Assembly (NCBI GenBank): GCA_964016885.1
Contig: OZ024750.1
Coordinates: forward strand, 7,006,001 to 7,070,000
Direction: 5' to 3'
DNA from: Eledone cirrhosa
Lineage: Eukaryota
Length of the DNA: 64,000 bases
Shown: one piece after another, positions 3,617 to 63,990 of the stretch
How positions within the stretch are numbered: the first letter of the stretch is position 1
Layout: every line of letters starts with the position of its first letter
Notes under the pieces: generated by a model
Database searches by the model: none
The model's input: only the letters and a program-made list of their open reading frames with translations
Told to the model about the DNA's origin: nothing
Position numbers and translations under genes: made by a program

Positions 3617-3728
3617 ATCCCGCCAAGGTTAACTTTGCCTTTCATCCTTACGGGGGTCGATAAAATAAAGTACCAGTAACGCACTGGGTGATTGCTGGCC
3701 TTGTGCCAAAAGTAGAAACAATTATTAT
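3617..3728 (+). mobile_element. Octopus-type SINE, 5'-truncated
   Basis: cccgccaaggttaactttgcctttcatcc..gtcgataaaataaagtaccag..ggccttgtgcc..(att)n; near-identical to 30668-30777. Confidence 0.8.
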
Positions 3729-4239
3729 ATTTATACTTCCAATCGATAAAGTATTTTGTTTGCAGGTCAATTAATTTAACAAAGAGGTAATCTTTATCAT
3801 TATTTCCCATTGATCACTTCTAATACAAGCTATTCTCATTAAATGAGCCAAAATCTATCTGCTGAAATTTTAAATGCAACAATTTTGTCAGTGGCATTTC
3901 ATCATTTATAATGAATCTTATTACAGAGTATAGAGTATTGTGTACTTTGTGTAAAAGCAGACACATATCTAAGCCTATTCTGCAAGCCAAAAGGTACCCT
4001 GAATTACTAGTTTATAATTCATCTAATTATTTAATTAGATACTAGCTAATTTAAATGGCTCCTCTTAGTCCTTAGTGTCACTCAGGCATAAAATGTTTTC
4101 CTGTCTAGTAGGTGTCTTACTCCAACAACAAACCTGCTCTAAATATCAGATTAGTCTTTATAAAAAACCTCCCAACAACCCTATCTTCTCCATTAATTAC
4201 CACATATCATTTTAGAAAATGTTACTGCTTTATCTAGTA

Positions 4240-19221: not shown

Positions 19222-19446
19222 TAGTAGTGGTGGTCACGAGCTGATAGGAGCAACTAGAGGAGACGAAAGAAATCATAGAGGCTCTTTACATTCTGAGTTC
19301 AAATATCGCCGAGGTTAACTTTGCCTTTTATCCTTATTGGATCGATAAAATAAAGTACCAGTAACGTACTGGTGTCGATTTAAATGACTTTCTCCTTCCC
19401 CTCAAAAAAATTGTTGGTCTCTTGCCTAAAATCAGAAACCATTATT
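19222..19446 (+). mobile_element. Octopus-type tRNA-derived SINE
   Basis: B-box GAGTTCAAAT plus the same body as the other copies, with an (att)n tail. Confidence 0.8.
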
Positions 19447-30512: not shown

Positions 30513-30589
30513 AGTATGAACATTTTAAAAGTAGCAGTTTTATATCATAAAAGCCAGAGGCAGTTTCAGGAGGTTAATAGATATTTCAG

Positions 30590-30777
30590 TGGATTGGCAG
30601 TATCGGGAGAGGGTCGGACGCCATGCTTTGAAGCATAGAGTTACGTCCCTTTATGATCTGAGTTCAAATCCCGCCTAGGTTAACTTTGCCTTTCATCCTT
30701 ATGGGGGTCGATAAAATAAAGTACCAGTAATGCACTGGGTAATTGTGGCCTTGTGCCAAGAGTAGAAACAATTATTA
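30590..30777 (+). mobile_element. Octopus-type SINE in NHP2 intron 1
   Basis: A-box-like TGGCAGTATCGG, B-box GAGTTCAAATCC, shared body. Confidence 0.8.
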
Positions 30778-30842
30778 AACTGTTTCCTGCTGCTGTCATA
30801 TTTGGAGCTAATTTTTCTAATATCTTTGTTTTCTTTTAACAG

Positions 30843-45546: not shown

Positions 45547-47051
45547 CTAGTACTGATGACCTCTCATAATATGTGAATAGAAGCCATACTTGTTGGTACA
45601 TTGCTTACCACATACATTGCACACAAATGGGTCCGTATGACTGTGACAACCGATATGAATGGAGAAGAGGACCTCGTCTTCAAATGTAACTCCACAATAT
45701 ATACAACGGTTGTCTGTTACAGTCGCTGTACTCGGCTGTTCACTGCCTTCTGATTCACTTGCAATGGACACTGAACGAGACCCCGTTCGACGTGAAGGTA
45801 ACAGTTCACACTGCACAGCCCTTTCAATAAACTGACATCGCCACCGCTTTCGTTCAGGAGCTTCCTCCTGTTCGACATTGAAACCTTCATTTTTTACATT
45901 AGGCAGTACACACTGCACTGCCACACTTGATGTTTCTCTCTTCACCGAAGCAGAGTCCACATCTGTTTCACTACAGTCCTGTGTCATCGCTATATCACAC
46001 ATCACATTACAATTACCGATTGTTAGTGGATTCGACGTGTGATGTGTGTTCTCCATGTAATTTTTTCCAGAAGATGTTGAAGCTATGTTTTCTACACTTC
46101 CTATGCTTTCCTCAACTGGTGACTGGTATTCAAGTCTAGTATTTGAGGAATCTGCTATATCGCCAGTACTCTGGCTAACATTAGATACTGTTCTAAGCTC
46201 CATATTTCGATCAAAAGGATTACTAGAATTTTCTAAATAGTCCAAAGACTGTCTTTTTGATGAGGTTGATAAAACAGTCTGAACATCCCTTGAACAATCA
46301 GGGGTTAGAGTTCTCATGGGTGTAGCTGCTGCTGAACTTGACACATCAGATATTTCCTCACAATCGTAAGGTTCAACTTTAACTTTAACCTCGCCAGTAT
46401 CAGTTACCATGGGTATTGTGGATGACGTTGAAGAACCTATAGAGGCCGTTGAAGATGGAGGAAGTGTTGGTGTTGCTACAGTTGCTGCTGTAGTGTACAG
46501 ACTGGATGAGGTAATTGTGCTGGTAACAGGCACTCTTGGTGGGGGCGGGGGACTATTCATTATGGAGGAGACGATAGAACGGAGATAATTTGATGCTAAA
46601 TGTGTATCCTGATTAGCCTGTTGACTAGCTGATTCATAATGATTATATTGAGTGAAACAATTGTTAATTGGTGCAGCAGTTGATCGCCTGAACTGCATGT
46701 TAGGAGATTGTACAGTAGTTAACAACGTGTGTAAAGTACTCATACCAAGTGGGTTTCCGGAGGAGGCACTCTGGTCAACCCCAAAATGCCGAAATCGGAA
46801 ACGAGTCGCTTCATAAGTAGGGCCTGTAAAGGGGACTGTAGCTGAATCTGTTCCTGTACTATTAGGGGTATCTACATGCTCTTCACAGTAATGTTCTCGT
46901 ATTTTTCGAGGCAAGATTGTTGAATAAGTGCACTTGTCACATTTAAGGACATTCACAGGATTGTTCCTGAGGTGGAGACGTTTATGACGGCGGAAGTTAC
47001 TCTTGTCGTTGGTTGAATAATCACATAGAGGGCACTTCAGAGCTTTAACAC
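45547..47051 (-). CDS. Ikaros/Hunchback-family C2H2 zinc-finger transcription factor (Pegasus/IKZF5-like layout), last coding exon
   Basis: ttttcAG acceptor at 47053-47052 (phase 1). Contains two C2H2 fingers (CPLCDYS..HKRLH; CDKCTYS..HYCEEH), a long S/T/P-rich region, and the C-terminal pair CIYCGVTFEDEVLFSIHIGCHSHTDPFVCNVCGKQCTNKYGFYSHIMRGH, the Ikaros/Hunchback dimerisation signature (IHMGCH..DPFxCNxCG). The track ORF start at 47136 is intronic. Confidence 0.92.
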
Positions 47052-47471
47052 CTGAAAAGATGAAGGAAAAAAAAAAAAAATTATTTATATATAAAAGAAA
47101 AAAACCCCAAGATCTTGGATAACTTGTTAAAAACAATATTTAAATAAAAAATTATATTTTCATTGTATATTCTAAGTTGCTATATTCATAGTTGAGAAGA
47201 TAAAAAACAATTTTGTTAAAGCTAATGTCATCAGGTGAGAACCAGTAACACAGCAACAACTGGTAACTTTACTTCAGTAAAATAGCTGAAAGATTTCTTG
47301 CAATTTAGGGACAATACCAGCAAGAAGTGACCAATACAAATATACCTTATAAGAGGTGACAGGAAATTTCGCAACAAATTTCTTGTTGCATGATGCAAGC
47401 TCTATATGAAGTAAGGTCCCTCATACTAGCTGAAGCAAAATTAACTATTTAAAAGTGTTTGACCTAGCTGT

Positions 47472-50120: not shown

Positions 50121-50376
50121 AGGGAGAGGAAAGTCGATTAAATCGACCCCAGTTCATTACTGGTACTTTATTTTATCAACCCTGTAAGGATGAAAGGCAA
50201 AGCTTAACTTCAGCGGGATTTTTTATATTCTGAGTTCAAATCCCGCCGAGGCTAGCTTTGATTTTCATCCTTATGGGGTCGATAAAATAAAGTACTAGTC
50301 ATGCACTGGGGTCGATTTAATTGACTTTTCCCTACCCCAAAATAGCTGGCCTTGTTCCTAAATCAGAAATCATTAT
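50121..50376. mobile_element. Head-to-head inverted pair of octopus-type SINE copies
   Basis: 50121-50220 is a minus-strand copy and 50226-50376 a plus-strand copy of the same SINE body. Confidence 0.8.
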
Positions 50377-52692: not shown

Positions 52693-53700
52693 ATTATTTA
52701 TAAAAGACCAAGGAAAGTAGAGATATCACACAAGAGTCACTGACATTTTCACAAGTAATTAATGTGAAAATTTGCAGCTAAATTAAAACGTATAAGTGAT
52801 TAATGCCAGAAACATTAGTTTAGGGGATAAATTAAATATGCCTAGTTCTATAAATACCAGTTGATGCAGTAAACTAAGTCAGTGAAATAATACTTATATT
52901 TGTGGAGATCATGATTTGTTAAGGTTTTGAAAACAGAAAATAAACTGTTTTACAGAAAAGAATTGTTTTAAAATATCCAGGTAACTAATTTGAATATGAT
53001 GTTTCCACAGGAGAATTTAGTATTTAGTCCTGAATTCCAGAAAAAAACCCAACAACAACGAATAATAAACGATGCAACTTTCAACACTTATTTCTCAAAA
53101 CTCTCTATCTACATAGGATAAATGTTTTAGAATAATGTGTGATATCACAATGTAGACTGCAGTTGTCATTTAGATGTGATATAATGTAGACTACAGATGT
53201 CATTTAGATGTGATATTGAGTGAACACGGTGGACCTAAGAAACGCTGCTATCATATAATGGAACTATAGCAATATTTGCAAAAAAAATTAAGTAAATGTT
53301 TTAAGTTAGCTTCAAACAGAACTGTAACAGGTCAAGAAACATTAAAACTAGCCATTTCTATTTTCACTATTTTAAAAAAAAACACTAAGCAAGATGCTAA
53401 ACATGCACAGACCATTTTGTTAAGTACTAACCACACCTGAGATAGTTAAGTACTAAACCACACCTGAGACAATAGTTTATTGAAGAAAACCTAGTAAATA
53501 ACACTCAGAGCTAAGTAAACAAAACAACAAAAACAAAATCAACAAAAAAAAACATCAAAAAGAACAAAAAAACAACAACAAGAAGAGGAATAAATAAGAC
53601 GAAAAGATAGAAAGAGAGGCTATTATAGGATGAGTATAGCTTGAAAGAGTGTAGCACACAACTCAAAGGTTGAGTGAAGAAAAAATTTCTATCTACTCAC

Positions 53701-54136
53701 CACCATGCTTGGGCATGTGGAGTTGGAGCTGTGTGTACTTCATTGTTGAAAAGTTGCAAAATCTACACTTGTAGAGGCGAGCAGCAATAGAGAAACCAGT
53801 TGGAGTGACAAGGTTCTCAGGTGATGACCTGTCCTCATTATAATCTTCCAATGGTGAAAAATCTCCCCGGTTCATTTCATACTCACTTCTGGTAGTATCA
53901 AAGTCACTGCGGCTGGCATAGTTCACCACATAGTGCTGGTCCTGTGAGGAATCTCCATCAAGTGTGATGGTCGGAACTTCATTCAAGCTGTTTTCTTCTG
54001 TTGCCGAAGGAATTTCACTGTTAACATCATGATGTGTCATCCTATTGGACAGTAGAAGTCTAGCAATGGTACTATGTCTCAGCTCAGGCTTGTCATCCCC
54101 ACTGCTATTATAGGGGTCTTCTTCCATATTGTCTAT
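53701..54136 (-). CDS. Ikaros/Hunchback-family zinc-finger gene, upstream coding exon (first finger)
   Basis: ttgtAG acceptor; in-frame ATG at 54127 (MEEDPYNS...); ends YKCRFCNFSTMKYTQLQLHMPKHG+G, GTGAGT donor. It joins in phase to give the linker HGGVKALKC; ~643 aa from this ATG. Confidence 0.9.
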
Positions 54137-54290
54137 CTACAAATACAGAATATATAACCCAAAACTATTGGTACTTCATTATTTCAGCAGATAAACAACC
54201 AACAAACAACTAACACATTAGTCCAGAAACATTTTCAAATGAAAATCAGTAAATTAGAAGACACGAGTCTAACATTCAAATAGATAACAC

Positions 54291-55478
54291 TAGTCTAATG
54301 TACACCAAGGCCTCTTCTAGCCTATTGTACACCAACACCTCTTCTAGCCTATTGTACACCAATGCCTCTTCTAGCCTATTGTACACCAACACCTCTTCTA
54401 GCCTATTGTACACCAATGCCTTTCATAGCCTATTGCACACCAACGCCTCTTCTAGCCTATTGTACACCAACGTCTCTTCTAGCCTATTGTACACCAACGT
54501 CTCTTCTAGCTTATTGTACACCAAGGCCTCTTCTAGTCTATTGTACACCAAGGCCTCTTCTAGCCTATTGTACACCAAGGCCTCTTCTAGCCTATTGTAC
54601 ACCAAGGCCTCTTCTAGCCTATTGTACACCGTCTCTTCTAGCCTATTGTACACCGTCTCTTCTAGCCTATTGTACACGTCTCTTCTAGCCTAATGTACAC
54701 CAAAGTCTCTTCTCGCCTATTGAGAGCAAGGCCTCTTCTAGCCTATTGTACACCAACGCCTCTTCTAGCCTAATGTACACCAAGGCCTCTTCTAGCCTAT
54801 TGTACACCAAGGCCTCTTCTAGCCTATTGTACACCAAGGCCTCTTCTAGCCTATTGTACACCAAGGCCTCTTCTAGCCTATTGTACACCAAGGCCTCTTC
54901 TAGCCTATTGTACACCAAGGCCTCTTCTAGCCTATTGTACACCAAGGCCTCTTCTAGCCTATTGTACACCAAGGCCTCTTCTAGTCTATTGTACACCAAG
55001 GCCTCTTCTAGTCTATTGTACACCAAGGCCTCTTCTAGTCTATTGTACACCAAGGCCTCTTCTAGCCTATTGTACACCAAGGCCTCTTCTAGCCTATTGT
55101 ACACCAAGGTCTCTTCTAGCCTATTGTACACCAACGACTCTTCTAGCCTAATGTACACCAAAGTCTCTACTAGTCTATTGTACATCAAAGTCTCTTCTAG
55201 TCTATTGTACACCAAGGCCTCTTCTAGTCTATTGTACACCAGGGCCTCTTCTAGTGTAATGCACACCAAGGTCTCTTCTAGTCTATTGTACACCAGGGCC
55301 TCTTCTAGTGTAATGCACACCAAAGTCTCTTCTAGTCTATTGTACACCAGGGCCTCTTCTAGTGTAATGCACACCAAAGTCTCTTCTAGTCTATTGTACA
55401 CCAGGGCCTCTTCTAGTGTAATGCACACCAAAGTCTCTTCTAGTCTATTGTACACCAGGGCCTCTTCTAGTCTAATGC
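54291..55478. repeat. 27-bp minisatellite, ~44 copies, in a zinc-finger gene intron
   Basis: Unit TCTAGCCTATTGTACACCAAGGCCTCT; source of the repetitive ORFs in the track. Confidence 0.97.
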
Positions 55479-56082: not shown

Positions 56083-56148
56083 AGAAGATGTTTCAGAGTC
56101 ACTGGAACATTTTTGATTTTCCTCTAGCCATATTTTTGAAGATTTTAA
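56083..56148 (-). other. Candidate upstream exon (66 nt) of the zinc-finger gene, 5' UTR or coding extension
   Basis: tttcatttttcAG acceptor and GTAAGT donor; open in the frame of the next exon (LKSSKIWLEENQKCSSDSETSS) and also holds an out-of-frame uORF. Confidence 0.55.
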
Positions 56149-57359
56149 CTGAAAAATGAAATAAATAGACAAGTCAGCAATGATGTTACATGGTAGTGAG
56201 ACATGGGTAGTACATGTAGAGGATGTGTGGTGCTACATGGTAGTGAATGTAGGGGGTGTGTTATGTTACAGTGTAGTGAGACATGGGTAGTTATTGTGGA
56301 GGATGTGTGATGTTACATGATAGTGTGACAATTATATTAGCCATTTTTATATTAAAACATAATATATATTATACACCTTTTCACAGCAAATTAAATACTG
56401 TTAATCTGCTCCTTTAAATAGCTTTCTCTTCAAAATTATAACACTCCTTCATTCACTGAAATATTTTCCAATGATTTAAAGGGGCATTAATATACATTGG
56501 AAAGCCATCAAGGGAAATAATTAAAAAGTAAAATAAAGAAAGCCGTTTATCTCCCTTACAAAAAAAAGGCTCTTGTAGATGGCAGAATCGGTAGAGCACC
56601 ATACAAAATATCCTGCAGTATTTAGTTGCCTCCCTTTGCATCCCCAGTCCAAATCAACTGTATTTGGCCTCCTTATGTGTTAAAATAAATACTTAGATCT
56701 CTATAATCCACTGTACTACGAGGCTCCCAGAAGGTGAAACTTTGCAACGATGTTGGTAATCCTTATTCATCATCACTTTACTTTCGCTTTCTAATGCTGG
56801 CATTAGGTTAGTAGATAGCAGAACTAATATAGTACAAGATAAAATGTTGGTATTAAGTCGGTGGAACGTAGAACTAGTAGATAAACTGTAGGCATTAGGT
56901 CGGTAGATAACAGAACTGGTATAGTGCTAGACAAAATGCTTTAAAGTATTTTGATGTATCTTTTTACATACATTCTGAATTTATATCCTGTCAAAATCTA
57001 CTTTGCCTGTTTGGGTTGATAAAATGAAATAGCATTAAAATGGCAGAGGTCTAGACTCCTTAATATCTCTCTCCTCATGAAGAGACATTTGTGTTACATT
57101 GCATATTCAGTTACCGAGTCGATGCTTTAGTTTCAATTCTCAGTCATGTCATCAAGAAAGATCCATTCCCACTTCCTAAAAGTTTGATGCTTTATCATGT
57201 ACTATGTAAGAAAATGTTTTCATGAGAAAAATAGTGTGTTTGAGAGTCTGGCAAAAGATATTACACATCATGGAGATATTAGTATTAGCAGGGAGGGAAG
57301 CTCCAACATTACCAAGTTACCAACAACAACCCTTAGCCCCTTTTTGAATTCCATGTGTC

Positions 57360-57814: not shown

Positions 57815-58345
57815 CTCAGAGAGTCATTCCGAATTGAGAGATCACAGTTCTGATACTATGGGCATGTGGTTAGAATGTCTCAGGAAAGAATTGCTGGACT
57901 GATTTGTAGCTCAGAGATCAGAGAGTCACTCCAGGTAGAGCTGCTACTTCTCCTAATTGAGAGATCACAGTTCTGATACTATGGACATGTGGTTAGAATG
58001 TCTCAGGAAAGAATTGCTGGACTGATTTGTAGCTCAGAGATCAGAGAGTCACTCCAGGTAGAGCTGCTACTTCTCCTAATTGAGAGATCACAGTTCTGAT
58101 ACTATGGACATGTGGTTAGAATGTCTCAGGGAAGAATTGCTGGACTGATTTTATGAGTAAAACCAACTGGCAGGAGATCCGTGGGTAGACCCTCAACAAG
58201 ATGGTTGAATAACATCCATGAGCTTGGCTGGTCTCGTTTGGGGATCCAGCCAGATTAGTCAGAGATGGTTGCTTCTGAGAAGACCCATTGGAAGGAGTGT
58301 TTGCCTCCATGGCCCTCTCAGAAATAAGTGGTTGAAGAATAAGAG
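57815..58345 (+). mobile_element. RTE-type LINE 3' fragment with 123-bp internal tandem duplication
   Basis: IERSQF*YYGHVVRMSQERIAG repeated ~2.6 times at a 123-bp period, then the same 3' end as 27066-27310. Confidence 0.7.
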
Positions 58346-59294: not shown

Positions 59295-59515
59295 ATTAAT
59301 AAAAATGGTTTCTGATTTAGGCACAAGGCCAGCAATTTGGGGGGAGGGGAAAGTCGATCAAATCGATTCCAGTGCATAACAGGTACTTTATTTTATCGAC
59401 TCAGTAATGATGAAAGACAAAGCTAACCTCGGCGGTATTTTAACTCAGAACGTAAAATGACGTAACTATATGCCGCAAGGCATGCTGCCCGACGCTCTAC
59501 CGTTTCTAGCAACCC
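59295..59515 (-). mobile_element. Octopus-type SINE, near full length
   Basis: Reverse complement of the same family, flanked by (TAA)n tracts. Confidence 0.8.
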
Positions 59516-59554
<39 letters not shown>

Positions 59555-60158: not shown

Positions 60159-60281
60159 CGGGACTCTCACACACATAAATATATATATATATATTATTTT
60201 GTAAACCACCTGTCTCCGTCTTTTTGTATTGTCCCCTATATAAATATATATATATATATATATACGATATTAACAAATGGA

Positions 60282-60347
<66 letters not shown>

Positions 60348-60377
60348 TCCATTTGTTAATATCGTATATATATATAT

Positions 60378-60532
60378 ATTTATGTGTGTGAGAGTCCCGG
60401 GTTCACTCGGGGATAATCACAGTAATTAAGGTACTCAATAGATTAGTAGAGTGTAAACATCATGTTTAATATAGAAGTGGCTTCTACAGGTCTAGAACTG
60501 TTTCATTCAAAAGAAATCACCACAAAGCCCTG
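60378..60532 (-). mobile_element. Penelope-like pLTR fragment with degenerate hammerhead-like core
   Basis: The minus strand reads ..gtggtga-tttc-tttt-gaat-GAAAC-agtt-ctagacctgtagaag..gagtacc..actgtgatt.., homologous to 63877-63990; bounded by TA tracts. Confidence 0.5.
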
Positions 60533-60630
60533 ATATATATATATTAGGGTATAAATGTTAAACTTTCTCTTAGGTTAATCACTACCTTGATCAAATCTTA
60601 ACCATTTTAACACCTCAGGGTATGTCATGT

Positions 60631-60700
60631 ATCATTATATTTTGTCTGATGAGGACGTACTGTTGTACATCCGAAATATGTATAATAAAATGTAATTGAT
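60631..60700 (+). ncRNA. Minimal type I hammerhead ribozyme (Penelope/retrozyme type)
   Basis: CTGATGA (60646-60652); stem II GGAcGTAC-tgtt-GTACaTCC; GAAA (60673-60676); near-palindromic mini helix III ATATGTAT; NUH triplet ATA (60682-60684); ~15-bp helix I between 60631-60645 and 60685-60700. Confidence 0.8.
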
Positions 60701-60734
60701 CAAAAGAACATCTATTTTATTAATATTTGTATTT

Positions 60735-60768
<34 letters not shown>

Positions 60769-62103
60769 ATATTAAATGTATGTATTTTCGTTAAAAAAAA
60801 ATCTATAATAGAAATTGAAGAACTTTTAATGAATATAGCTTAACTGTCAAGTGGAAATTATATTTTATGCAACATCTCTAATGTCAAAAAAGAGATTACT
60901 AAAGAAACATCAAATACAACCTACAACGATGTTTTGATTCTATTTCACCGAACAATGAATTAATCCACATTAAAATAAGTTATATCTAAATTCACTTTGG
61001 AGAGGGTAAATAGGTCGGAATAGAACTGATTATCAAAGATCGAAATAAAATGAAAAAAAGTTACCTTTTAGAAGTTATGAAATATATTGTATTTTATCAA
61101 TTATATAAATCTGGATTAAAAACTTACATGTTTACATAATGGGAAATGGGATATCTATCTATCTATTTTATATATATATATATATAAGTAATTTGTTGTT
61201 ATTGTGATGTATCCAAATGGTTATTTGGTAAATAGTTTCCTTGGCACCTACCTAACTATAAAATGTTTTTTAAAATGTCAAAAGAGAGAGAGAGAGAGAG
61301 AAAATGACGCGATTTATTTACTTCTATACACACCAATGAATCAGAGAATACCCTAAAATGTAAAGCAGGTACGTGTCTAAAAGTGGTAAGAATTCAACGG
61401 GGAACTAAGTTCCAATAGATAGATATAATAAATAAACTGCAAAAACATTATAAGTCATAATATTTAGATATACATAGAGCATATTAATGCAATAGACTTG
61501 ATATGATCCGACTACTGCAGTTCGTTATTTGCATTCATATTCGACTCTCTAAGCTATAATAACATATGAAAATTATATAAATACCTGATGAGACAAGTGA
61601 ATATACTGTAGTATCATGCATGTCACCAAAAAATATTAAAGACATATTTTACATTTCAGTAAATGGCAATCGATTTAGCTGGGATTCAAAATGCCACCAT
61701 GTTGCTTTTAAACAGAAAATAGACTATCTTTGGTTTCGTAATATTAAAGAGTCGTTCCTGTGGTATAGATGGTAAACAGGACGGCTGACGGACTACAACC
61801 TACTGAATTACACATGCTGCATTTTACAGTCAACTTGACCTAAATACACAATACACCTCTTAATAACAGATAAGACGACAAGCGAAACACAATATAACTA
61901 AGAAATAAATGGTAATTGTTCCTTACATATAAATATATTATATATATAAACACACACACAAAACACGAGTCCTAATATATCCAGAGCGTGGTAATAATCC
62001 TAAGCACTACATTTCAAGTGTTTTCAAAACATTCGATGGTGAAATTAATCAGTTCAATAAGGAATCGAACGTGCTTTCAATAATCGTGTCTTTGAAAGCT
62101 TAC

Positions 62104-62300: not shown

Positions 62301-63813
62301 CCCCAATTACAATTATAACTATCGATAAATAAATAATATCTGTTGCAACTTATTCACTATATAACTATTTCAAATTTAAAACAAAGCTTTCAAAATAAAA
62401 CAAGTTTAGTTTATGTTAGATTAAAAACCCTTTTGGAATGATCGCATTTTTTTACCCGAATAATAAATATTTGAATGTATTTCTTTATGATGACTATCTT
62501 AGTGAAGAGATAAAATACTCACACAGAAAAACACATGTAATCTGTTGTCCTTCACATTTAGCTGCTTCTCTCTCAACAAACATAACTCGAATCCAGGGGA
62601 AAAAAAGTCAAAGGGGAAAAAAGTTACAGCGCGCATACACATACACGCTTCTGTGTGTATACACACACGTGCTTGTTTGTGTATACAAGCTCTAACATAA
62701 ACACATATATACATACACATACATACGCACACACATGAACATGCATGCATAGACACCCACACACGCATGCGATTTGTTTTTTTACATACGTGTAATGCCA
62801 TTATATAAATTGTCATGGTATACTAGTCATATACTATGAATAGGCGACTTAAAATATATTTTTATAAATATCTACATCTACTTCTGTTGTTGTAGTTAGT
62901 TATTTAAAATAATATATCAAGTCCCTTATTAACGGAAAACCTTAATTCTGTCTATTATTTATGATATTTAAATGAAATACTAAATTTTCCGAGATATTTT
63001 TTTCTTATCCAAAATTAGGACTTTTCCTGTGACTATATTTCCATTACGTTAGCTATGAACCTGAACGAAGTGAATTGAACAGCTATAAATAGACAAACCT
63101 CCCCCAAATCACACCCGACCGTCTTAAAAAGAAAGCATCACATCGGATAATGTAGTTTTAGATGTTCTATAGCTAAAACAGACGGAATGGTTACACCACG
63201 ACGGCTGTTTATCTTAATTATATCACTGCTGCCCTGGACAAAATAACTGTTTGACCAATTAAATCTACCCCCAAACAACACTTTACCGCCTTTAAAAGAA
63301 AAGAGCACTGGATAATATAGACCCAGTATCAGTGTGCCTTGGATAAATGTGGAATGTTTATGTTTTGAATACGTAGTGTAGTTATGAAGGCGGCGGGAGT
63401 TTTGCCTGGGTGTCGCTTTTGACGTTTATTGTGCTGTATTTTTCATTTGTGAGAGATTTGAGGGACAGTCCCTTGCCAACAAACTCTTGCTACCCCCCCC
63501 ACCCTTTTTGTTTTCATAGGTTTCTTCAATTAGAGTTTATCTGGGGGCTAGACAACTGCAAGTAACTGGTAGAAGTGAGGTTTTTTTACGGTCGTTCACC
63601 CTGGTCGCAATAACAACCAATCACACTCAAGTATGTTTATGAAGGAGTAACAGATCGTATAAATGCTGCAGTCTCCCGGATAGACTACAAATGAATATAA
63701 TATAGGATAGAATTCTGACCACAGATCTAGGCACCTGACTTCGTAGTTAGAGGATCGGATTCGCAACCGTGAGGATCCGAGTTCGATTAACGGACCTATA
63801 TATATATATATAC

Positions 63814-63990
63814 CATATAGAAATGTCTTCTACAGGACTAAAACTGTTTCATTCATTTGAATTCATTTGGATATTCCTGATGATTTCAAACGACTGAAAC
63901 AGTTCTAGTCCTGTAGAAGTCATTTCTATATGAAACATATACCTTTACTAATGTATTGTGAACCTTATTTAACTGTGATTTCTTCCCAGC
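63814..63990 (+). mobile_element. Penelope-like element with hammerhead-like core and inverted partial copy
   Basis: CTGATGA at 63877 followed by GAAAC-agtt-ctagtcctgtagaag; preceded by an inverted diverged copy (63814-63867) adjoining a (TA)n tract; same family as 60378-60532. Confidence 0.5.

Follow-up and report, generated by a model that had tools for sequence, protein, structure and literature searches.

A type I hammerhead motif in a truncated Penelope-like element of Eledone cirrhosa, probably of the Hydra clade and with predicted two-copy cleavage

Results

The locus and its surroundings

The 64,000-nucleotide stretch of Eledone cirrhosa DNA analysed here (the window) carries on its minus strand an Ikaros-like zinc-finger gene (Table 1), whose protein is 95% identical to an Octopus Ikaros-family protein and at most 43% identical to the named gastropod and bivalve ones, which makes the host an octopod and suits the cephalopod setting of the original prediction. 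On the plus strand, 60631-60700 holds a type I hammerhead ribozyme motif near the 3' end of a truncated transposable element. Judging from one predicted isoform, whose minus-strand exons flank the site, the motif likely lies inside a ~13-kb intron of the Ikaros-like gene, in the antisense intronic position originally proposed for it; since the element lies on the strand opposite to the host gene, the pre-mRNA carries the complement, which cannot cleave.

Table 1. Features of the hammerhead locus and of the host gene, in window coordinates except where a contig is named
Feature	Position	Strand	Basis or remark
Ikaros-like gene, last coding exon	45550-47052	-	residues 143-641 of P0001 matched at 95% identity
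Ikaros-like gene, first coding exon	53699-54136	-	95% identity to P0001 residues 1-143
Likely upstream exon, nearest on the intron's downstream side	56107-56166	-	tblastn with P0069, 85% over 20 aa, E 1e-5
Further exon beyond the window	G000:C10:7075049-7075216	-	same predicted isoform, 57% over 56 aa, E 2e-8
(TA)n target remnant, truncated 5' junction	60533-60544	.	sequence
5'-truncated 3' end of element, ~199 bp of ~4-kb unit	60542-60740	+	no tail, ORF or inverted partner here
(TA)n target at the element's common 3' end	60737-60772	.	sequence; repeats
Helix I, 5' arm	60631-60645	+	pair probabilities 0.48-1.0; covariation
Catalytic core C3-A9, CUGAUGA	60646-60652	+	sequence
Helix II: 3 pairs, unpaired C60656 facing A60669, 4 pairs, 4-nt loop	60653-60672	+	
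Catalytic core G12-A13-A14	60673-60675	+	sequence; GAAA is 60673-60676
Helix III, 8-nt self-complementary AUAUGUAU, A15.1 to U16.1	60676-60683	+	pairing predicted between two copies
A17 of the AUA triplet (60682-60684)	60684	+	predicted cut on its 3' side, 60684/60685, by hammerhead numbering
Helix I, 3' arm	60685-60700	+	fold; covariation

Several repeats lie around these features. A 27-bp minisatellite of 44 copies (90% matches) sits just upstream of the first Ikaros-like coding exon at 54290-55474, and a 123-bp repeat is present in 2.6 copies at 57828-58151. A ~190-bp repeat, probably a small non-autonomous element, recurs at 30589-30791, 3617-3737, 59297-59554, 19280-19372 and 50148-50310, and is also inserted at differing places inside copies of Penelope-like elements (PLEs) at the genomic loci L073, L078, L082, L083 and L091. 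A repeat family with inverted arms, very high-copy by depth, occupies 63805-63941 and 60393-60522, the latter being a decayed inverted piece directly upstream of the element end, and a hammerhead-like core with a GUC triplet and a poor helix II is found at 63877-63910. At 60246-60383 an inverted repeat with 69-nt arms surrounds (TA)n, its arms matching the extreme 3' end of a sister family with AUA-type hammerheads from the Hydra clade of PLEs; together with nested repeats near the motif (60156-60200/60358-60402 and 59569-59618/60192-60241), it marks the TA tract as a repeated insertion site.

Core and helices of the window motif

The defining core positions of a type I hammerhead are present (C3-U4-G5-A6-N-G8-A9, G12-A13-A14, A15.1-U16.1 and H17, with U16.1 at 60683), and the sequence confirms CUGAUGA, GAAA, U16.1 and the AUA triplet as first read. 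Helix II, formed by 60653-60660 and 60665-60672, is paired at seven of its eight positions and closed by a UGUU loop, and helix I folds into 15 pairs, two of them G-U, with one bulged U (60697); both agree with the original description. The three helices, with the ends of the motif meeting in helix I, are backed by covariation, helix III only as a pairing between two copies.

Measured on the window copy alone, the fold of 60625-60705 has a z-score of -2.07, with 5 of 200 shuffles equally good, and the bare core pattern occurs 8 times in the window against a mean of 4.1, a chance-level count that 7 of 100 shuffles reach. The check with Rfam hammerhead models that had been named beforehand came back empty, with no hammerhead match at the gathering score nor at E<=10 and TA-driven miRNA matches only, which weakens membership of Rfam families only. 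That the motif is real follows from the 2,308 copies of its exact core in the 3.0-Gb genome, with none for the reversed pattern used as control, and from covariation across related families; on these two grounds a chance motif is ruled out.

The label 'minimal' initially given to the hammerhead does not hold in the strict sense, since min-HHRs have nothing of helix III or loop 3 beyond the core pairs and a short, 8-nt palindromic helix III is present here. The extra base 9/10.1 with a conserved G10.1-C11.1, likewise part of the min-HHR definition, does not characterize the 24 aligned rows described below. On its sequence, the window motif fits the 'small palindromic helix III' variant as set out in the available part of Cervera and de la Peña 2014.

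A truncated copy of a dispersed family

What had been taken for a ~190-bp TA-flanked insert or island (60545-60735) is instead a truncated element end (Table 1), both ends of which blur into TA. The 200 bp around the motif have 1,724 candidates in the animal's own genome, and the 39 best other places are 96-98% identical to the window copy over 198 bp; against the long natural copy at L083, the window copy matches only the last ~200 bp. The family has a common 3' end ~55 nt after the hammerhead: among 29 other top loci, 14 stop at the same end base as the window copy and pass into (TA)n, 14 continue with a tail of ~95 bp before (TA)n, and one abuts another element. The 5' ends of copies range from ~200 bp to >1.5 kb and up to the full gene. 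All examined genomic copies run unbroken through the predicted cut site.

Among the first 100 exact copies listed, 34 form divergent inverted pairs and 66 are solo (counted by eye, with 12 pairs mapped), and none of these 100 has a same-strand neighbour within 10 kb. Full head-to-tail tandems are found at three of 20 loci (L073, L074 and L082), in the order hammerhead, tail, short 5' UTR, ORF, 3' UTR, hammerhead, with the motifs spaced ~4.06-4.28 kb apart and, in L073, the upstream cut site ~210 nt before the start codon. Most copies being solo or inverted, a cis partner is rare. The window copy is ordinary transposon debris and, as a solo copy without a cis partner that lies antisense to the host gene, it is likely inert.

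Two variations within the family concern helix II: at L083:6843 and L064 it has collapsed through an internal deletion, and loop II is shortened in the window's family relative to an older subfamily (L140, L129). Across four contig sets compared with the stretch, no joint skips the insertion and no piece spans the stretch; variants at 60669 and 60672 recur in three runs.

The parent element

Upstream of the family copies comes an AT-rich 3' UTR of ~1.5 kb and then a gene with reverse transcriptase (RT; GASD, YRDD) and endonuclease (EN; VY...YIG) frames, which is absent from the window copy. Tested the other way round, with 20 loci chosen through endonuclease-side DNA, 19 show this 200-bp end further downstream and in the same orientation; another PLE interrupts the remaining one, L091, which retains an inverted copy. 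The genome-wide search proposed at the outset, for copies, tandem arrangement and adjacent RT/GIY-YIG frames, has thus yielded all three: 2,308 exact cores, tandems at 3 of 20 loci and RT-EN linkage at 19 of 20.

The natural frames carry RWR, DKT, CxCx5C, CxxC...E...N...CxH, YIG and YRDD and have no GxKF/Y. In L083, RWR is a conservative change from RWK, DKT stands in place of DKG, and GxKF/Y is absent; the linker reads CNCRNKTDC in L091 and most copies, with the third C lost in L083. The residues E and N are flanked by CALC...E...NKKSE...CLH in the family frames, and the canonical CCHH is absent. Every long copy inspected has a broken frame, being frameshifted or interrupted. Pfam gave no significant family for four RT/EN frames, and a homologue search returned none at 771-2200 aa and 24 relatives, nearly all unnamed, at 242-770 aa.

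The published marks of the Hydra clade, in the part of the description available, are RW(K/R), DKT, CxCx5C, CxxC/CxH, insertion into (TA)n and hammerheads, with a length generally <3 kb that is typical and not defining (PMC8557442). The window's family also inserts into (TA)n and shows the traits of EN+ PLEs, namely partial pLTR tandems, inverted 5'-truncated partners and an optional tail; at ~4.06-4.28 kb between tandem hammerheads, it is longer than that typical size. Its motifs, set by eye against the reference proteins, support a Hydra-clade PLE, with its GIY-YIG endonuclease at the C terminus, as the parent. A Naiad parent is ruled out by that group's N-terminal EN and lack of a hammerhead, and the linker and DKT do not fit Neptune, Nematis or Penelope/Poseidon. 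The family assignment originally left between PLE and retrozyme can accordingly be split: the PLE half is borne out by the 19 of 20 linkage and the Hydra motifs, and the retrozyme half is unsupported because the family has its own RT-EN gene and dispersed copies, with none of the 100 listed ones next to a same-strand neighbour within 10 kb.

Genes of Hydra type also lie upstream in two sister AUA groups, their proteins being 38-63% identical to that of L083. For the GGUCAC/UAUCAC-type AUA families no Hydra-type gene was found upstream in the loci examined, which leaves three AUA groups with a tie to Hydra genes. Beside or inside Hydra copies, PLEs of other types have long open frames at L091:6826-8577 (+) and L086 (558 aa), the former with a putatively Neptune-like linker and the latter with a putatively Penelope/Poseidon-like RT.

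Covariation and an unpaired cytosine in helix II

We aligned 24 hand-picked related copies spanning the families seen, with L037 included and L016 left out. The named pairs hold in 86% of cells, against 29-53% for slid controls, and the covariation score is 0.582 against 0.273 for shuffled alignments; none of 500 shuffles reaches it, a count that is not a probability because the rows are related and hand-picked. Related copies with covarying helices, on which the original prediction had been staked, are therefore present. The first eight pairs of helix I are paired in 86.5% across the 24 copies and seven of the eight have changed on both sides; these figures come from 24 rows taken without a helix I filter, clustering on at least 5 helix I pairs being circular. 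All seven pairs of helix II have changed on both sides. The pair G10.1-C11.1, said to be kept, is kept in the window copy and is not a conserved feature: at 10.1-11.1 the 24 rows have G-C in 3, G-U in 9, A-U in 9 and no pair in 3, the first position of helix II thus pairing directly in 21 of 24.

At position 4 of helix II none of the 24 rows has a pair, and all have C as the 5' base; no other column is invariant without having been imposed by the main search pattern (two of the 24 rows came from searches requiring the C). Genome-wide, 102,573 of 107,825 matches (95%) have C at this position. Of 100 listed copies in the window's family, 71 place A opposite this C and 29 a second C, giving C-A and C-C mismatches. 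With C at this place in all 24 rows and 95% of the genome-wide matches, the mismatch behind the 'seven of eight' pairs of the window copy is a kept feature. The unpaired C is likely under selection, and most simply its role would be a tertiary contact with helix I.

Self-complementary helix III and pairing between copies

Across the 24 copies helix III takes six self-complementary forms, AUAUGUAU, AUAUAUAU, AUGCGCAU, AUGUGCAU, AUACGUAU and AUGAUCAU. Its pair 3/6 is A-U in 16 copies, G-C in 6, G-U in one and unpaired in one, and all 24 have complementary bases at the two neighbouring centre positions (U-G 12, U-A 8, C-G 3, A-U 1). It is important to note that most of these rows came via a pattern forcing alternating purines and pyrimidines (RYRY), which inflates helix III pairing; in an unforced search with the middle four bases free, 92% are still RYRY, 96 of 100 listed matches are fully self-complementary, and 13 of 15 listed non-RYRY exceptions are a further perfect palindrome. 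Neighbouring centre bases cannot pair in one strand, and their complementarity thus points to pairing between two copies. The six palindromes, covarying down to these neighbouring bases, provide natural-variation evidence for PLE hammerheads pairing between copies.

Folding agrees in direction. In a single copy the helix III pair probability is 0.0 and forming the helix costs 2.8 kcal/mol, and the minimum-energy fold of two copies is a double hammerhead in which helix III has 8 pairs and the cores stay open, at -34.0 kcal/mol against 2 x -15.6 kcal/mol, a dimer gain of only 2.8 kcal/mol. Of the six variants, that of the window copy forms the weakest 8-nt duplex (-2.2 kcal/mol, with 6 of 8 pairs in duplexfold). 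Covariation and modelled folding together support cleavage that depends on two copies, and in the excerpts available PLE hammerheads are described as failing to cleave when monomeric and as cleaving at a low level when dimeric (PMC4209133; review PMC6765202).

Hammerhead load of the genome

A core pattern with an AU...AUA helix III and its middle forced to RYRY has 107,825 matches in the genome (control 214), two of 100 listed ones lacking any helix II by eye; with the middle free and C required at helix II position 4, the AUA pattern has 111,623 (control 191). Cores with a GUH triplet number 122,893 against a control of 11,446, i.e., about 111,000 over control. AUA and GUH cores together come to about 220,000 over control, these being core-pattern counts in which nested matches are counted twice. 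The motif families are many and often arranged as divergent inverted pairs. Schistosomes may be denser in hammerheads per megabase, and no density record is claimed here. In the published material consulted, the axolotl has 126,247 type I motifs (PMC7229834), Xenopus tropicalis about 9,000 and the coelacanth 4,000 hammerheads (PMC4209133), and the giant squid 235 by Rfam (PMC6962438). The count of ~220,000 exceeds the largest of those compared, that of the axolotl, and Rfam misses the one motif tested. A large Rfam-invisible load makes a long-open question testable by counting: if the motifs cut, sense copies should be depleted in introns and UTRs.

A separate array, at G000:C1:1239857-1244284 (L171), consists of 311-bp units with one GUA-triplet hammerhead core per unit; 14 cores are listed, 5 on the minus strand followed by 9 on the plus strand. 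Judged by its sequence, the array resembles a genuine non-LTR retrozyme that carries an internal inversion.

Discussion

We propose, at a probability of roughly 80%, that the window motif is a type I hammerhead from the pLTR of a Hydra-clade PLE, left in (TA)n as a 5'-truncated solo copy, with cleavage predicted to take two copies and the copy itself likely inert. In the working cycle that we envisage, a tandem transcript would carry two hammerheads about 4.06-4.28 kb apart, the 8-nt palindromes of which would pair and both sites be cut, freeing a unit-length RNA that begins about 210 nt upstream of the start codon. Reverse transcription likely starts at two internal sites, some 55 and 150 nt beyond the 3' cut site, and its template would be RNA that is uncut at the 3' hammerhead or re-ligated, as suggested by genomic copies that continue unbroken through the cut site; two start sites on uncut RNA would explain both the two 3' ends and the read-through. 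The endonuclease likely opens the (TA)n target, and most insertions would stop early, the window copy being one such.

Part of this cycle has a counterpart in the Anolis PLE, for which the portions of the study available describe an optional tail from two internal RT start sites, uncleaved RNA as the main substrate, and a motif that cleaves and whose activity core mutants abolish (PMC11167929). In the same system, insertion in vitro persists when the hammerhead is mutated, and RNA-seq gave no reads ending at the cut site (PMC11167929); on these two results unit-length release stays a proposal only.

The same observations bear on the alternative that survives best, in which the fold persists because it serves some function different from cutting, for instance as a handle for the element's protein near the RT starts or in RNA dimerisation in a particle, and cleavage is slow or incidental. 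We consider this unlikely as the whole explanation, though it is partly compatible with the two-copy Hydra-clade reading. It would account for genomic copies that read through the cut site and for a G10.1-C11.1 pair in only 3 of 24 relatives, and it gains from cleavage being dispensable for in vitro insertion of the Anolis PLE (PMC11167929) and from Naiad elements, which thrive without hammerheads (PMC8557442), both as given in partial texts. A non-cutting role sits poorly with the catalytic bases and NUH triplet that define about 111,000 matches over many diverged families, and with the Anolis motif, which cleaved and was inactive in core mutants (PMC11167929).

A second alternative shares the origin and adds cleavage by monomers, through two helix III pairs and a 4-nt loop aided by the long helix I and a contact of the helix II C; were it true, solo copies would cut any sense transcript running through them. 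Helices I and II do fold with high probability, A15.1-U16.1 and U15.2-A16.2 are invariant in all 24 rows (imposed by the search patterns), and invertebrate retrozyme hammerheads with a short helix III are described in part of PMC7229834 as cleaving well as monomers. The helix III pair probability of 0.0 at a cost of 2.8 kcal/mol, together with a complementarity of central neighbours (24 of 24; 96 of 100 listed in the unforced search) that is useless in a single strand, makes monomer cleavage improbable in our view. We hold it equally doubtful that, of about 220,000 motifs, the half in a so far undescribed structural subclass with 3 pairs, an invariant unpaired C, AUA triplet and 8-nt palindrome gain through this C a new tertiary contact enabling two separate RNAs to cleave each other efficiently in trans; in that event sense copies in introns and UTRs could cut host transcripts transcriptome-wide, and the family palindromes would serve as pairing codes. 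With a one-base change at the conserved unpaired C, one could probe how these slow ribozymes are held together.

Far less probable is that the 200-bp piece moves by itself as a non-autonomous retrozyme or SINE-like unit. It is short, high-copy and equipped with a type I hammerhead, animal retrozymes have been proposed to derive from PLE pLTRs (bioRxiv 10.64898/2026.07.22.740005, in part), and the same genome contains a real tandem array of 311-bp hammerhead units from another family; a stand-alone retrozyme is largely refuted by copies whose 5' ends vary from ~200 bp to the full gene, by the absence of close same-strand neighbours (0 of 100 listed copies within 10 kb) and by upstream sequence leading to the RT-EN gene in 19 of 20 loci. 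Co-option of the window copy to regulate the Ikaros-like gene, suggested by its place between mapped exons, is rejected as very improbable, as the pre-mRNA carries the complement, the 96-98% identity to dispersed copies makes the insertion young, and at ~37 motifs per Mb a 13-kb intron often holds one by chance.

Comparison with known systems

Literature searches on octopus or cephalopod hammerheads and on the helix II mismatch gave no description of the class, which the work of Lunse et al. 2017, reportedly treating dimer cleavage, may cover. A paper on O. vulgaris repeats does not mention hammerheads (PMC13282606). Already in print are the hammerheads of Hydra PLEs, an Octopus Hydra family, the palindromic helix III and the dimer model. 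The comparisons that follow refer to the portions of the cited papers available to us.

With small-palindrome PLE hammerheads of Drosophila willistoni and Aedes aegypti, the window's family shares a long helix II and the proposal of dimers (PMC4209133). An 8-nt palindrome spanning A15.1 to U16.1, together with an AUA triplet, gives the D. willistoni row the same plan of helix III (PMC4209133, Fig. S3), and in one sea-urchin row C is mismatched with A at position 4 of helix II, as in the window copy (PMC4209133). The consensus in that paper typically includes an extra base A9/10.1 and G10.1-C11.1, whereas the window's class has no such extra base and does not conserve that pair, and its helix I has 8-15 pairs against 2-5 in the PLE hammerheads listed there (PMC4209133).

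Animal non-LTR retrozymes (Cervera and de la Peña 2020, PMC7229834) resemble the window's family in their type I hammerhead and very high count, and those of amphibians show the dimer-dependent cleavage predicted for the window motif; they are non-coding tandem units of 170-400 nt, whereas the window motif belongs to a dispersed, protein-coding 4-kb element. The Poseidon PLE PAc of Anolis carolinensis likewise has a hammerhead upstream of two alternative 3' ends, an optional tail and genomic copies that run through the cut site, but is of another clade and has its hammerhead overlapping the start codon (PMC11167929), which in the window's family lies about 210 nt downstream of the cut site.

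The closest likeness is to the Hydra clade (Craig et al. 2021, PMC8557442), which shares RW(K/R), DKT, CxCx5C, CxxC, CxH and the (TA)n target, a type I hammerhead on the sense strand, close to the 3' end and self-complementary in helix III, a relaxed 10.1-11.1 pair, inverted truncated partners and a one-sided tail. Hammerheads are listed there for Hydra elements including Hydra-1_Obim of Octopus bimaculoides, at 2,507 bp and with 'no pLTR' (PMC8557442); by eye, its protein resembles that of the window's family and its hammerhead and N terminus differ, making it another family. The window's family forms true pLTR tandems, unlike Hydra-1_Obim as listed, and its unit of about 4 kb with a ~1.5-kb 3' UTR exceeds the 2.1-2.7 kb of the complete Hydra families listed, as its tail of ~95 bp exceeds the clade's 30-40 bp (PMC8557442). 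Its triplet is AUA, against GUH in 26 of 26 Hydra rows of File S2, and the unpaired C at helix II position 4 is not found in those 26 rows (PMC8557442). Relative to the 26 Hydra rows of File S2, the window's family stands out by its AUA triplet and the unpaired C that it conserves, and by a length of 4 kb and a tail of 95 bp.
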